Assembly (NCBI GenBank): GCA_964385825.1
Contig: CAYLPX010000001.1
Span: 173,797 to 237,796 of the forward strand
Source of the DNA: an uncultured Candidatus Saccharibacteria bacterium
Lineage (GTDB): Bacteria; Patescibacteriota; Minisyncoccia; Phycocordibacterales; JAKFXT01
Reading direction: 5' to 3'
Length of the DNA stretch: 64,000 nt
Part shown: piece by piece, positions 559 through 59,822 of the stretch
How the letters are laid out: each line of letters opens with the position of its first letter
Position numbering within the stretch: the stretch's first letter is position 1
Translations under genes and position numbers: made by a program
Notes under the pieces: model-generated
The model's input: the letters and a program-made list of their open reading frames with translations, nothing else
The model's database searches: none
What the model was told of the DNA's origin: nothing

Positions 559-948
559 GTGGAAACTGCTACCCCCACCGCCCCTACCGTCACCTTGTCC
601 GGTGAGCTTCACAAATTCGGGCAAAATCAGGGCAACGGCCCCGCTACCTTTTTCCTCGAAGCCTGCATGAATGGTGACGGGGAGCCGGTGGCCGGTCTTG
701 CCACCCTCTACTACCAGCGCAGCGAATTCGGTCGGGAGGAACTTCTCCGACTAACCAACCACAACATCCGCCTAGCGATTTTTGAACTCAGCATCCTCCG
801 AAGGGGGGCGTATCCCAGGATCGTCGGGTTCAGGATCGAGCGGAAGCCGGAGACGATCTGCGTGGCATTCGAGTGTCACGCCCTGGCCGAGGCCTTGGTG
901 AAACTCGGCTGGTTCGAAGAGGCGGAACTTCTTTCGACGACCGCCTGA
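559..948 (+). CDS. GC-rich cassette A: hypothetical 129-aa protein, GTG start preceded by AAGGAG
   Basis: ORF track. About 60% GC against AT-rich flanks. SD AAGGAG at 548-553. Followed by a GC hairpin plus T-run terminator at 968-995. No recognisable family. Confidence 0.6.
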   Translation: METATPTAPTVTLSGELHKFGQNQGNGPATFFLEACMNGDGEPVAGLATLYYQRSEFGREELLRLTNHNIRLAIFELSILRRGAYPRIVGFRIERKPETICVAFECHALAEALVKLGWFEEAELLSTTA

Positions 949-967
949 GGAAGCCCCTCCTCGCAAA

Positions 968-995
968 GCGCCCCAGCTCGGGGCGCCTTTTTTAT
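968..995 (+). terminator. Intrinsic terminator (gcgcccc-agct-cggggcgc + TTTTTT) after cassette A
   Basis: Perfect 8-bp GC stem and T-run read directly in sequence. Confidence 0.7.
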
Positions 996-1075
996 TTGCG
1001 ACGTAAAGTGAGTGAAATGAAAGTTCAATAATTTTCATTTCCGAACCGAGGAGCTACTATGGCTCGTAGAAAGCT

Positions 1076-3658
1076 CTATTTATGTTTAAGGGCGCGCTTT
1101 AGATACTTGGCGGTATGGCTTTTCTCACTATTTGCAACATTTTCTGGCGTACCTTTAGCAACTAACTGCCCGCCACCAACCCCTCCTTCGGGTCCGATGT
1201 CTAGAATATAGTCAGCAGATTTTATCACATCCATATTGTGCTCAATCACAACCACGGTGTTCCCCTTATCAACAAGTTTTTGCAAAATCTCAATAAGCTT
1301 CCGAACATCTTCATAATGAAGTCCGATGGTTGGCTCATCAAGTAGATAGATGGTTTTTTGTAAGTGTGCTCTATACAGTTCGGAAGATATTTTTACGCGC
1401 TGAGCCTCCCCACCTGAAAGCGTTGTGGCTGATTGCCCAAGCTCCAAATAACCAAGCCCCACATCAATGAGTGACTGTAATCTATCTGAAATAGCTGGTA
1501 TATCTTCAAAGAACTTACTAGCCTCCTCTACTGTCATGCGAAGTACTTGATAGATGTTTTTCTTTTTATACGTCACCTCTAACGTTTCTTTCATAAATCG
1601 CTTACCACTACACACATCACACGGTACGTACACGGTTGGCAGGAAGTGCATTTCAACGGCGATCTCTCCATTACCCTGACAGGCTTCACAGCGACCACCC
1701 TTAACGTTAAAAGAGAAACGATTCGCCTTCCACCCACGGGCTTTTGCTTCGCTTGTTTCAGCAAACATATCTCGTATGAAAGTGAAAGCTCCTGTATAAG
1801 TAGCTGGATTTGACCGTGGAGTACGCCCGATAGGTGACTGATCAATAAGGATTGTTCGACTTACATATTCCGACCCTTCAAAAGAGGCGCAGTTGTACGT
1901 TTTAGCACTACGATACCGCTTCTCAAGCCTTGCTTGAAGGTTCTTGTGAAGTACTTCATATACGAATGTGGATTTACCGGAACCGGATACACCAGTTACA
2001 AGCACGAGTTTACCAAGCGGGATTTCCGCATTCATGTTTTTAATATTAAATGCATGAGCCCCTTTGATTTTAATGGCACCCTTATCGCTGGTGCGCCGGG
2101 CCTCAGGAACAGCAATGAACTTCTCACCACGTAAATACGCAAGGGTAAGTGAACCAGAATCATTTTTCTTTGCTGTTAGGAGCTTTTCTAAATTATCAGC
2201 AACTACCACTTCCCCACCATGCACTCCAGCTCCCGGGCCAATATCAACAAGGTAATCAGAAGAAAAGATAGTATCCTCATCGTGTTCCACTACTAAAATA
2301 GTATTCCCCATGTCTCGCAAATGAATAAGGGTTTTTATGAGGCGATCATTATCACGCGAATGAAGCCCAATGGTTGGTTCATCGAGCACATAGAGAGCTC
2401 CTACAAGTCCAGAACCTAATTGCGAAGCAAGGCGAATACGCTGACTTTCCCCGCCCGAAAGTGTATTCGCCCGTCTATCGAGTGTTAAATAATCAAGTCC
2501 CACATTAAGCATGAAAGAAAGACGAGCATTTATTTCTTTCAAAATTACTTTAGCGATGCTTTTCTCTGTTGGTGTTAAGTTAATATTTTCAAAAAATGTA
2601 AAAGCGTCCTTGATAGAAAGCGAGGTAATCTCAACAATATTTTTTCTGGTCTTAATAGTATCTCCCAAGAATACATGGAGGGCTTCTGGTCGCAAACGTT
2701 GGCCTTTGCAGGCCTCACAAGCCTCATTACCAAAGAAATGTTTTGTACCAAGCCCATTACAAGTAGGACAGGCTCCATAAGGTGAGTTAAAAGAAAACAG
2801 CCGAGGCTCTATTTCAGGAAAGGAGAAACCATCATAGGGACACATAAACTTAGCTGAAATTAGTTTTTCTCCCTCAGGAGTTTCAATTTTCAAAAGTCCA
2901 TTTGATTCAGCAAGCGCCCGCTCAATAGCTTCGCTGAGACGTTCACGAAACGTACTCTTTTTATCATCCAGCTCTGAGAAATAAAACTTATCTACAAGCA
3001 CATCTATATCGTGCTTTTTATTCTTATCAATAATAATCTGATCACGAAGTTTGTGATCTTTTCCATCAATTTTTACTACTTCAAACCCCTTACCCAAAAG
3101 ATCATAAAGCAGCTGGTAGTACTCACCCTTTCGGCCTACCACAAGCGGTGCAAAAAGCTTAAGCTCAGCTTTATCATACGAAACACCCAAAACCTTTTCC
3201 TTTTTCACTTCTTTTTTCAAAGCTCCAACAGTTTCAAGAATGGTGTCTAAGATTTCTTCATTGGTCAGCTTTTTAATTTCTCTATCACAAATGAGACAGT
3301 GCGGGTGGCCTACGCGAGCAAACAGTATACGAAGGTAATCATAAATTTCAGTAATAGTTGCCACGGTTGAGCGTGGATTATTGGAGCGTGATTTTTGATC
3401 AATAGAGATTGCAGGAGAAAGCCCTACGATTTCATCAACGTCTGGCTTTTGCATTTGATTCAAAAACTGTCTTGCATACGCAGAAAGTGACTCAACATAA
3501 CGCCTCTGACCTTCAGCAAAAATAGTATCGAACGCCAAAGATGACTTCCCCGATCCAGAAAGCCCAGTAAACACCACCATCTTATTCCGTGGCATTGAAA
3601 CAGTAATGTTTTTTAAATTATGCGTTCTCGCGCCTTTAACTATAATTTCATCCCCCAT
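1076..3658 (-). CDS. uvrA: Excinuclease ABC subunit A
   Basis: Two ABC ATPase modules ([14 protein letters not shown]; [12 protein letters not shown]), zinc-finger Cys clusters, LSGGE signatures. Start probably at the [18 protein letters not shown] Met (3656-3658). Confidence 0.95.
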
Positions 3659-3731
3659 ATGGTAATTGCCCACGGATTACTCCCTGGGTGTATATAGCAG
3701 TGAGTATAGCACAAAATAGCAAAGCCGAAAG

Positions 3732-58629: not shown

Positions 58630-58720
58630 AAAAATAAGTAAGTAAAATTTTCTTCTATCGAAAGCTGTGATACTCTTTTCTTTAGAGTAGTATCCGATTC
58701 ATAACTGGAGGGAGGGCATC

Positions 58721-59149
58721 ATGGAAAGGCTTTGGCTCGGCATCGCAATCATCGTCGTACTGGGGTTCTTGGTGTGGAAGCTTGTCTTCCCATCAGGGAG
58801 GAAGCCTCAACTCACGGTGGAAAAGGCGCGGGAACTGCTCCACTACCCGCTCAGCAAAGTCTCACAAAACAGCCTCTTGCCCCCGAACGATGGGACGATA
58901 ACCCAACTCATGGGAAGACTCAAGGTTGGGCATCTCGAACAAAGAATTGGACCTTACCGAATTGAAGTTTTCCGGGTAAGGGCCGAGGACTATAGCGGTG
59001 AAATAAGCTTTCAGATGATGAGCGGCGTCCTTACCGCCAGCCTTCTTGCAACACCTTCGGGCTTCGAGGACTTCGCGCAGGAACTTGCCCGGCTAGTGCA
59101 TCAGGCTGAGGAGCTGCACGGTCAATATGGAACTCTTGCCGCAGCATGA
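58721..59149 (+). CDS. GC-rich cassette L: hypothetical 142-aa protein with N-terminal TM (SD GGAGGGAGGG)
   Basis: ORF track. Terminator gcccccaccagggggc + TTTTT at 59173-59195. Confidence 0.55.
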   Translation: MERLWLGIAIIVVLGFLVWKLVFPSGRKPQLTVEKARELLHYPLSKVSQNSLLPPNDGTITQLMGRLKVGHLEQRIGPYRIEVFRVRAEDYSGEISFQMMSGVLTASLLATPSGFEDFAQELARLVHQAEELHGQYGTLAAA

Positions 59150-59366
59150 CCCCCGCGGGATCGCCCGCTTAAGGCCCCCACCAGGGGGCTTTTTCACACA
59201 ATACCCGCTCATAGAGAGCGGGTATTTGCTGCTGTTTTACCAATTTCTATATTATGCAATATTACTTGACTTTTGTATATAGATATGATACTATACACAT
59301 CAGGTGCGGAGGGGTCTTCGCACAACTGTCCGCCGGCTAACCCCGGCCTTATTAAGGAGAAACGTC

Positions 59367-59480
59367 ATGCAAGCCATTGCCCAGTTTTTCGGGATTTCGA
59401 TCCCGCTGATTGCCTGCGGTATGGTGCTGCTGATCGCCGGAATGAAGCGCGTCGAGGCGCTTCGCCCGATCCGTCGCTAG
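59367..59480 (+). CDS. GC-rich cassette M: 37-aa single-TM cationic peptide (type I toxin-like)
   Basis: Careful translation gives MQAIAQFFGISIPLIACGMVLLIAGMKRVEALRPIRR. SD AAGGAG at 59354-59359. Strong terminator 59499-59540. Confidence 0.45.
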   Translation: MQAIAQFFGISIPLIACGMVLLIAGMKRVEALRPIRR

Positions 59481-59591
59481 GCCTCACAGCCAGCGGCACC
59501 CCCCTCCCTCGCAGTTTGCGGGCGGAGGGGTTGTTTTTTCCAGGAGGCGTTGTATTGTTATCTTAGATCTTTTTTTCCCGGGGGGGATAAA

Positions 59592-59822
59592 ATGGCAATA
59601 GTTCTGAGAGGTCCGCTTTGGCTCACACAGATGGTAGAGCGTGTGGTAGAGCGTGAGCACAAATGGGTTGATAGGGTGCAAGGCGAAATCTGCTTTGCGC
59701 TCGGGGTCCCGGCCCTGTCGGTCAGGACTGTGGCGATGATGGTCTCGCTCTTCAACAAGGTCCTAGTGCCAACCACAATCGCCGTGGTGGCAAGCCTCCC
59801 CTTCTATGGAGGAGGTACATGA
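59592..59822 (+). CDS. GC-rich cassette N: hypothetical 76-aa protein
   Basis: In-frame ATG within ORF 59550..59822, preceded by a G-rich SD. Product MAIVLRGPLWLTQMVERVVEREHKWVDRVQGEICFALGVPALSVRTVAMMVSLFNKVLVPTTIAVVASLPFYGGGT. Followed by perfect hairpin 59832-59859. Confidence 0.45.
   Translation: MAIVLRGPLWLTQMVERVVEREHKWVDRVQGEICFALGVPALSVRTVAMMVSLFNKVLVPTTIAVVASLPFYGGGT

Follow-up and report, generated by a model that had tools for sequence, protein, structure and literature searches.

The DNA considered here is a stretch of 64,000 nucleotides (nt), called the window below, from contig CAYLPX010000001.1 (assembly GCA_964385825.1, positions 173,797 to 237,796 of the forward strand), deposited under the name of an uncultured Candidatus Saccharibacteria bacterium. 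Its G+C content (GC) is 44.2%, and it carries a long series of housekeeping genes, hereafter the core genes, which encode UvrA, UvrB, Tgt, a two-component pair, BipA, HolB, Dus, FtsQ, SerRS, DprA, TopA, RelA/SpoT, ParB and MiaA. In the gaps between them lie the subjects of this article, 14 small GC-rich open reading frames (ORFs) in 13 transcription units, here called cassettes. Each has a Shine-Dalgarno (SD) sequence, and each unit has an intrinsic terminator of its own. An initial annotation had read these cassettes as a wave of mini-genes, either acquired horizontally from a high-GC donor or engineered. Are they indeed foreign arrivals in an AT-rich genome, or do they belong to the lineage that carries them?

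The sites first reported hold, with the starts corrected for D (45380), E (45938), F (46725), J (54809) and N (59592). One gene had been misread: instead of a TTG-initiated ORF M of 97 amino acids (aa) at 59273-59566, there is a 37-aa peptide, M', at 59367-59480. This shorter ORF is also called by JGI, and its promoter is predicted at 59266-59294. The two ORFs of the G pair both stand, as two tiny membrane peptides on one transcript. For cassette A, the JGI version is 93 aa long and begins at 667. The cassettes and their signals are as follows (GC3, GC at third codon positions; TM, transmembrane).

559-948, + strand: cassette A, 129 aa, GTG start, GC 0.60, GC3 0.72, SD AAGGAG
968-986, + strand: terminator of A, 7 G-C pairs and a T-run
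37881-38285, - strand: cassette B, 134 aa, GC 0.52, GC3 0.62, SD AAAGGAGG
37857-37877, - strand: terminator of B, 9 G-C pairs
44973-45380, - strand: cassette D, 135 aa, GC 0.58, GC3 0.67, SD GAGGGAGGG
44921-44940, - strand: predicted terminator of D, from the consensus scan
45516-45938, - strand: cassette E, 140 aa, GC 0.58, SD GGAGG
45473-45496, - strand: terminator hairpin of E, 24 nt
46066-46725, - strand: cassette F, 219 aa, PyrE-like, GC 0.58, GC3 0.68, SD GGAGGA
46031-46052, - strand: predicted terminator of F, from the consensus scan
47831-47965, + strand: cassette G1, 44-aa single-TM peptide, first cistron
47979-48095, + strand: cassette G2, 38-aa TM peptide with acidic tail, second cistron, SD AAGGGGGG
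48102-48128, + strand: terminator of the G1-G2 transcript, -28.8 kcal/mol
50394-50747, - strand: cassette H, 117 aa, GC 0.56, SD GGGGG
50367-50387, - strand: predicted terminator of H, from the consensus scan
51738-51760, + strand: leader, SD and start of I (CCACCCAAGGAGAGATACATGGA), 23 nt, the same as 47813-47835 before G1
51756-52085, + strand: cassette I, 109-aa ORFan, GC 0.55, GC3 0.68, SD AAGGAG
52102-52118, + strand: predicted terminator of I, from the consensus scan
54447-54809, - strand: cassette J, 120 aa, three TM segments and acidic tail, SD TAAGGAGGGG
54413-54436, - strand: predicted terminator of J
56494-56841, + strand: cassette K, 115 aa, GC 0.57, GC3 0.70, SD GGAG
56853-56885, + strand: predicted terminator of K
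58721-59149, + strand: cassette L, 142 aa, N-terminal TM anchor, SD GGAGGGAGGG
59173-59189, + strand: predicted terminator of L
59367-59480, + strand: cassette M', 37-aa TM peptide, C-terminal RPIRR, SD TAAGGAG
59501-59530, + strand: predicted terminator of M'
59592-59822, + strand: cassette N, 76 aa, C-terminal half hydrophobic, SD GGGGGGG
59832-59859, + strand: terminator of N, upstream of the true MiaA start at 59909

In a 500-nt GC profile the reported sites appear as discrete peaks of 0.54-0.59. With refined starts the cassette ORFs have a GC of 0.45-0.60 and a GC3 of 0.56-0.76, against 0.33-0.47 and mostly 0.30-0.41 for the core genes, so the compositional contrast first noticed by eye is confirmed in refined form. 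Within the cassettes GC3 exceeds GC1 and GC1 exceeds GC2, and the rise in GC extends to every codon position and to both untranslated regions. The GC-rich stretch runs from about -20, at the SD, to about +40 past the stop, at the terminator; the DNA that borders it, made of promoter and T-run, has only 29-34% GC. The cassettes sit in the gaps between core genes, as had been said of them, and interrupt no core ORF.

The expression signals separate the two gene classes just as clearly. All 14 refined cassette ORFs have an SD that pairs with the anti-SD at -6.4 kcal/mol or lower and lies 5-10 nt upstream of the start. Among core genes, a duplex of -6 kcal/mol or lower is found in 6 of 41 (15%), close to the 12.9% of random 18-nt windows, which upholds the view that native genes here mostly lack an SD; operon-internal core genes lack it too. 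A terminator, defined as a hairpin plus T-run of -10 kcal/mol or lower, lies downstream of 11 of the 12 cassettes and 8 of the 41 core genes taken in a first pass (Fisher p = 1e-5), and the first-pass test for SD enrichment gave p = 2e-5; neither signal is as common around native genes. The refined set comprises 13 terminators of -16 to -29 kcal/mol, and the top sites of the consensus scans fall directly 3' of A, B, D, F, H and I. Upstream of the units, -35/-10 elements of promoter type are predicted from sequence, and the cassettes can be described, as they were at the outset, as modular and self-contained. A generic SD comparison over all loci that took the best in-frame start was dropped, as this procedure inflates SD calls in long genes.

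Core genes appear to begin differently. At inspected starts (for example TopA 52206, RelA 54897, FtsQ 48969 and HolB 44835), 19 of 42 core genes have a TAnnnT box whose end lies 3-12 nt upstream of the start codon, against 16% of random positions, which suggests that leaderless or near-leaderless mRNAs are widespread. The TopA promoter (TTGACA ... TAGTAT ... ATG) is recognisable even in distant Paceibacteria (loci L054 and L073).

One line of evidence that the cassettes encode proteins comes from F. This product matches Pfam PF00156 with 40 bits (cut-off 26.3), and PDB chain 2aee with E = 2.7e-26, followed by 16 more orotate phosphoribosyltransferase chains; it stays below the NCBIfam equivalog cut-offs (98 bits against 245 for NF001729, 91 against 106.8 for TIGR00336). 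By these matches F is a divergent PyrE-type orotate phosphoribosyltransferase of putative activity, and it has only four hits in all in a protein search. The initial annotation had recognised this phosphoribosyltransferase as the sole nameable product, which holds for F and now needs a weak addition in B: residues 10-81 alone reach 28 bits with DUF6884 (Pfam cut-off 30), and the N-terminus resembles the PADLOC family DpdC (E = 1.9e-5 over 54 residues), both weak matches. Matches to PHROGs amount to one of unknown function, for B, and two marginal ones, none functionally annotated. Cassette A has no family match in Pfam, PHROGs, PADLOC or NCBIfam, and apart from F and B the same four collections leave the other cassettes without a match as well. 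JGI names H as CheY-like, a name that our analysis does not bear out, as no Pfam Response_reg match was obtained; the only similarities of H are to VpsR (E = 0.047) and PhoB (E = 0.0034 over 44 residues). Modelled from the single sequence, H and K gave AlphaFold structures of low confidence (pLDDT, the predicted local distance difference test score, 53.5 and 49.6). Membrane peptides or proteins make up six of the 14 products, namely G1, G2, M', J, L and N.

Much of the evidence comes from relatives. The core genes point to a bacterium with a small genome, and a TopA scan of species-representative genomes puts it in Patescibacteria of the Paceibacteria/Parcubacteria type. The closest species-level genome, L015 (CAZIPS010000007.1), has 91% TopA identity, followed by L095, a metagenome locus, with 87%, L016 with 77% and then many loci with 65-73%; L095 is the only additional close relative that a metagenome TopA scan yielded. 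The backbone holB-Dus-FtsQ-SerRS-DprA-TopA-RelA-ParB-MiaA is syntenic in dozens of Paceibacteria loci, with gaps of variable size. In bacteria such gaps are usually AT-richer than core genes, and in 107 loci the gaps of 300-2500 bp are indeed lower in GC than the core genes, by 2.4 points on average. At the upper extreme of this distribution stand the window (+8.5), L015 (+7.8) and L016 (+6.5), together with a few unrelated lineages such as L054 and L136, in which GC-rich small ORFs with an SD also stand beside core genes of leaderless type.

When the same positions were checked in other genomes of the lineage, the gaps of L015 and L016 proved to contain small ORFs that are likewise raised in GC and have both SD and terminator. 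Orthologues in L015 are 69% identical for F, 38-43% for H, about 30% for E and 28-29% for K, and the K orthologue of L095 is 26% identical. For E, F, H and K, with DNA near saturation, protein similarity to the counterparts lies 18-150 standard deviations (z) above shuffles, and the annotated frame is the best of all 36 (six-by-six) frame combinations. The tiny peptides have kept motifs too: that of G1, h-LW-x-VPT, is common to two peptides of the same L015 gap; G2 and a third peptide there both consist of a TM segment and an acidic tail; and M', with its RPIRR end, matches an L015 peptide ending in RPIIGRR behind the same promoter. The products thus look like real proteins, as had been supposed. 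At the position of J, L015 has a protein with three TM segments and an acidic tail behind a conserved promoter, and the counterpart of L (L015 17105-17545) shares its architecture with an N-terminal anchor; neither has detectable sequence similarity to its partner. In the orthologue pairs of H and F the SD has survived the divergence of the leaders, an argument that it is used.

These genes change fast. Their protein identities of 26-69% compare with 58-94% for adjacent core genes, and their nonsynonymous divergence (dN) of 0.22-0.96 with 0.04-0.34. No counterpart of D is detectable in L015, where a different ORF (3558-4082) lies in the array, and an additional Cys-rich ORF stands upstream of the J counterpart there. 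Cassette I is missing from L015, L016, L095, L017 and L018, in which the DprA-TopA gap measures 49-97 bp; a search of 5.8 billion clustered proteins, and a full HMMER search of 1.84 billion representatives, found no match to it other than itself. The cassette protein clusters have 1-3 members each, all of this population. A common donor or shared family, which the initial annotation had envisaged, fails to emerge: among 73 small GC-rich ORFs collected in 90 related loci, the window/L015 pairs were the only families. In IMG/VR, pattern scans with A, B, F and K, which sense close relatives only, turned up none.

Two short identities concern the signals of E, G1 and I. The terminator hairpin of E (45473-45496, - strand) is identical over its 24 nt to L015 2966-2989 (- strand), the E proteins being about 30% identical and silent sites being near saturation. 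The leaders, SDs and starts of G1 (47813-47835) and I (51738-51760) are identical over 23 nt, and 88% identical over 34 nt, in this strain only. To judge from the sequence, the shared leader may be a duplicated "expression head" that seeded a new gene, and both identities might be small conversion or duplication tracts.

The decisive question is whether the high GC is a vanishing trace of origin. At four-fold degenerate sites, taken at residues conserved between the window and L015, third-base identity is near saturation in cassettes (0.41) and core genes (0.40) alike, and the proportion of synonymous differences (pS) is 0.64-0.81. GC at these sites (GC4) is nevertheless 0.67 in the window and 0.66 in L015 for cassettes, against 0.38 and 0.38 for core genes, with a joint distribution close to independence. 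Each of the two lineages has therefore kept two compositional equilibria side by side, and the high GC is maintained, not decaying. The trace of a past import, if in decay, would have relaxed toward the core value. This is the chief argument against a recent wave from a high-GC donor, and the counterparts in the same gaps of L015 are another.

Since all codon positions and the untranslated regions share in the rise of GC, and since the bounds of this rise match the predicted transcript, selection at the RNA level was tested. Cassette coding sequences fold better than synonymous-codon shuffles (mean z -1.45, p = 0.004; core segments -0.25), with 9 of 11 clearly negative, A at zero and K at -4.85; dinucleotide shuffles gave -1.34 for cassettes and -0.15 for core genes. 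The L015 orthologue of K also folds well (z -2.15), and K may contain a conserved RNA structure inside its coding sequence.

Taken together, the cassettes are, in our judgement, rather probably genuine, chromosomal, lineage-specific small genes of this Paceibacteria clade and not recent imports. Each would be an insulated unit in which a promoter of sigma-70 type is followed by a leader of 25-65 nt containing an SD, then by a GC-rich ORF (37-219 codons, sometimes two cistrons) and lastly by a strong intrinsic terminator. The units would be placed at a boundary between transcription units of a deeply conserved AT-rich backbone. The cell, which we infer to have a working anti-SD, would then use two initiation regimes, SD-dependent for the cassettes and SD-free, often leaderless, for the core. 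The units would be inherited vertically at fixed positions, their proteins diverging roughly 5-20 times faster than those of the neighbours, with occasional gain, loss and replacement. Their GC richness would come from selection on the mRNA, either for stability or structure or for slow decoding through GC-ending codons rare in this genome, and not from foreign ancestry. Fast evolution and the membrane bias fit, as a conjecture, roles at the cell surface or in conflict with host, phage or neighbour. One proposal goes further, and we hold it as tentative at best: the two stable gene classes, with GC held up by selection for folded, nuclease-resistant or slowly decoded mRNA, would by composition and initiation mode together mark a separate expression regime, for example one confined to a particular physiological or host-attached state.

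Several points weigh against lineage-specific genes of this kind. The promoters, transcript ends and translation of the units are predictions from sequence, and the anti-SD motif has been reported missing in about half of Parcubacteria (PMC9297842). Sequence-level counterparts exist only for E, F, H, K, the G peptides and M', J and L being matched in architecture alone; for I and D there is no counterpart, so that some turnover occurs and transfer may have taken place there. Any dN/dS is only rough, with synonymous sites saturated. The folding trend in L015 and L016 has the same sign and is non-significant (z -0.76, p 0.13). ORF length by itself is weak proof of genes in such GC-rich DNA: at 57% GC the longest stop-free run in 400 nt, over six frames, averages about 90 codons, and an ORF spanning an island has p = 0.03-0.46 in each case, not individually significant, the values combining by Fisher's method to about 2e-5. 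The classes also overlap somewhat, as some AT-rich genes, for example 37358-37636, carry an SD. An intermediate case, which lies near tRNA-Gln (42817-42890) and which the class description leaves unexplained, is the following.

42064-42531, - strand: ORF X, 155 aa, GC3 0.58, leaderless-type start, no terminator; outside the class count

The best-surviving alternative likens the cassettes to the morons of phages, that is, to imports with their own signals, whose foreign look would be kept up by continuous turnover from a GC-richer donor (a host bacterium, a phage, a plasmid or a GC-rich relative). A moron in the sense of Hendrix and Juhala has its own promoter and terminator and a deviant GC, and lies between conserved genes (PMC2920897). 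The architecture here fits that definition: in both, single genes or small pairs with their own signals and a deviant GC occupy hot-spot positions with variable presence. Cassette I is the best candidate for a recent gain, lying with its predicted signals and different GC between DprA and TopA, which are adjacent in all close relatives. The other ORF at the D position in L015 and the extra Cys-rich ORF there speak for the same process, as do the match of B to a widely distributed domain and a PHROG, and the tRNA genes near X and near L, M' and N. Three of five moron features are present in all; the phage context and the occurrence in other genomes are absent. Unlike morons, the cassettes stand in the core of a cellular chromosome, among UvrA, SerRS, TopA, RelA and ParB, and not in a phage or prophage, and most are old positional orthologues, seen in no other lineage, whose composition is stable over saturating divergence. 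Those of E, F, G, H, K and M' predate the window/L015 split and have a GC4 of about 0.67. No donor turned up for I in the 1.84e9 proteins searched or for F, the viral scans already described were empty, no families span lineages, and recombinase, phage and attC features are lacking. The foreign DNA that can be recognised in this genome is, moreover, AT-rich, as ORFans and acquired genes typically are relative to their genome (PMC3514957). We regard this alternative as unlikely.

That recognisable island lies about 3.8-7.5 kb to the left of the window (locus L180, 1883-5549). Bounded by a tRNA, it encodes HEPN_AbiV, DUF5681 and DUF3761 proteins and contains a LOOT RNA (RF03000, 72.8 bits); its GC is 0.29-0.40, and the architecture of SD plus terminator is missing. 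It is a conventional acquired defence island.

A second alternative holds that the gaps are hot spots of exchange between strains, in which biased mismatch repair, that is GC-biased gene conversion, drives GC up. It would account for the rise of GC at three codon positions and in the untranslated regions and for fast divergence with indels; the terminator of E, identical between species, could be one conversion tract, and the leader shared by G1 and I another. The bounds of the GC-rich stretches are, on the other hand, sharp at SD and terminator, without decay with distance, the adjoining core genes show no rise in GC, and the shift of about 30 points in GC3 is, to our knowledge, far above the GC shifts associated with recombination in bacteria. 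We find gene conversion decidedly improbable as the cause.

More improbable still is that the islands are GC-rich structured RNAs or terminator-rich spacers, whose ORFs are by-products of stop-poor sequence. The chance lengths given above are in its favour, as are the folding of cassette RNAs beyond shuffles and the low AlphaFold confidence of H and K. Yet F belongs to the PyrE family, similarity for E, F, H and K is confined to the annotated frame despite saturated DNA, and peptide motifs are kept across species. Each ORF is framed on its own strand by an SD 5-10 nt ahead of its start and a terminator shortly after its stop, its GC3 exceeding GC1 and GC1 exceeding GC2, and an Rfam scan found no RNA family in the islands. 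Finally, an assembly chimera or engineered construct, which has the sharp compositional contrast and nothing else to recommend it, has a negligible chance of being right, as at least 14 contigs, the products of independent assemblies of JGI samples and SRA runs, carry the same arrangement at 99.9-100% identity, with two assembly pipelines and different samples represented, and three other species-level genomes from unrelated studies are organised alike. The population of the window is clonal in the sampled contigs.

How do the cassettes, taken as lineage-specific genes, compare with other known systems? They share with ORFans and genomic islets their shortness, lineage restriction, fast evolution, lack of homologues and position between core genes, and differ in being about 13 points richer in GC (about 30 in GC3) and in their uniform expression signals. 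As in integrons, a compact one-ORF module is followed by a hairpin, and many small proteins are of unknown function; integron cassettes are, however, promoterless, arrayed beside intI and attI and terminated by attC sites with RYYYAAC/GTTRRRY cores, whereas the units here are dispersed over 59 kb, have a predicted promoter of their own and end in plain G+C stems with T-runs. The window has two matches to an attC-like pattern against 13.5 in shuffles, none within 200 nt of a cassette stop, and its proteins, scanned against Pfam, include no integrase, transposase or phage domain, which disposes of the earlier suggestion of gene-cassette-like elements. Toxin/antitoxin or immunity modules, suggested likewise, gain nothing from PADLOC, Pfam and NCBIfam, where no such family was matched except, weakly, the DpdC-like B. 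G1, G2 and M', as single-TM peptides of 37-44 aa on short, GC-rich, structured and terminated transcripts, do resemble type I toxin loci; unlike these, they match no family, no antitoxin partner was identified for them, and most cassettes encode larger soluble proteins. Leaderless and SD-led initiation are mixed within one genome in Actinobacteria and Deinococcus, much as they appear to be here. We know of no difference in base composition or gene age between the two sets in those groups; here the SD-led set is compositionally distinct and young-looking.

Other features of the window and its surroundings deserve mention. A 4562-aa ORF (11655-25343, - strand) with many internal repeat families and a GC2 of 0.57 (rich in Gly, Ala, Ser and Thr) precedes the gene of a 727-aa protein that has three Laminin_G_3 domains (9462-11645, - strand), and from their sequences the two probably form a giant surface or adhesion locus. 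Adjoining the L, M' and N cluster on its upstream side is an 80-aa stand-alone GIY-YIG ORF (58188-58430, + strand, GC 0.35), which overlaps the start of tRNA-Leu(CAA) (58421-58503, + strand). Hypothetical genes without Pfam domains at 29182-30455, 34585-35866, 36675-37849 and 40487-40813 have a core-like low GC and lie within operons, which means that orphan status alone does not track high GC in this genome. In L095, SerRS (641-1915) is 40% identical to that of the window, against 72-87% for its neighbours DprA, TopA and RelA, and may have been replaced by a distant homologue.

Units like the cassettes also adjoin the window, and the class is for that reason probably genome-wide. An uncalled GC-rich SD-led bicistron lies between Ddl and UvrC (L180 8156-8581, + strand). 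A gene of 217 aa at L180 844-1497 (- strand) is SD-led too and matches sigma-70 region 4 weakly. Two ORFs of GC 0.62 and 0.55 lie between ClpB and a CHASE2 guanylate cyclase (L176 5167-5529, - strand, and 5673-6047, + strand).

As a kind, stand-alone accessory ORFan genes are already known; what is new is a stable GC bias tied to SD-led initiation, and for Patescibacteria our literature searches met no earlier account of a gene class that is both GC-rich and SD-led. As a matter of routine, a deviant composition is taken to mean recent transfer, and here the deviant class is GC-richer and persistent. If it extends over the whole genome, it would be a counter-example to transfer inference from composition, and would reveal two translation-initiation regimes split by gene class in a bacterium of the candidate phyla radiation. 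The class also offers a test bed for the causes of GC at the level of single genes (mRNA selection, biased conversion and gene flow), and a handle on the many small hypothetical proteins of uncultured episymbionts, among which membrane peptides are numerous here.

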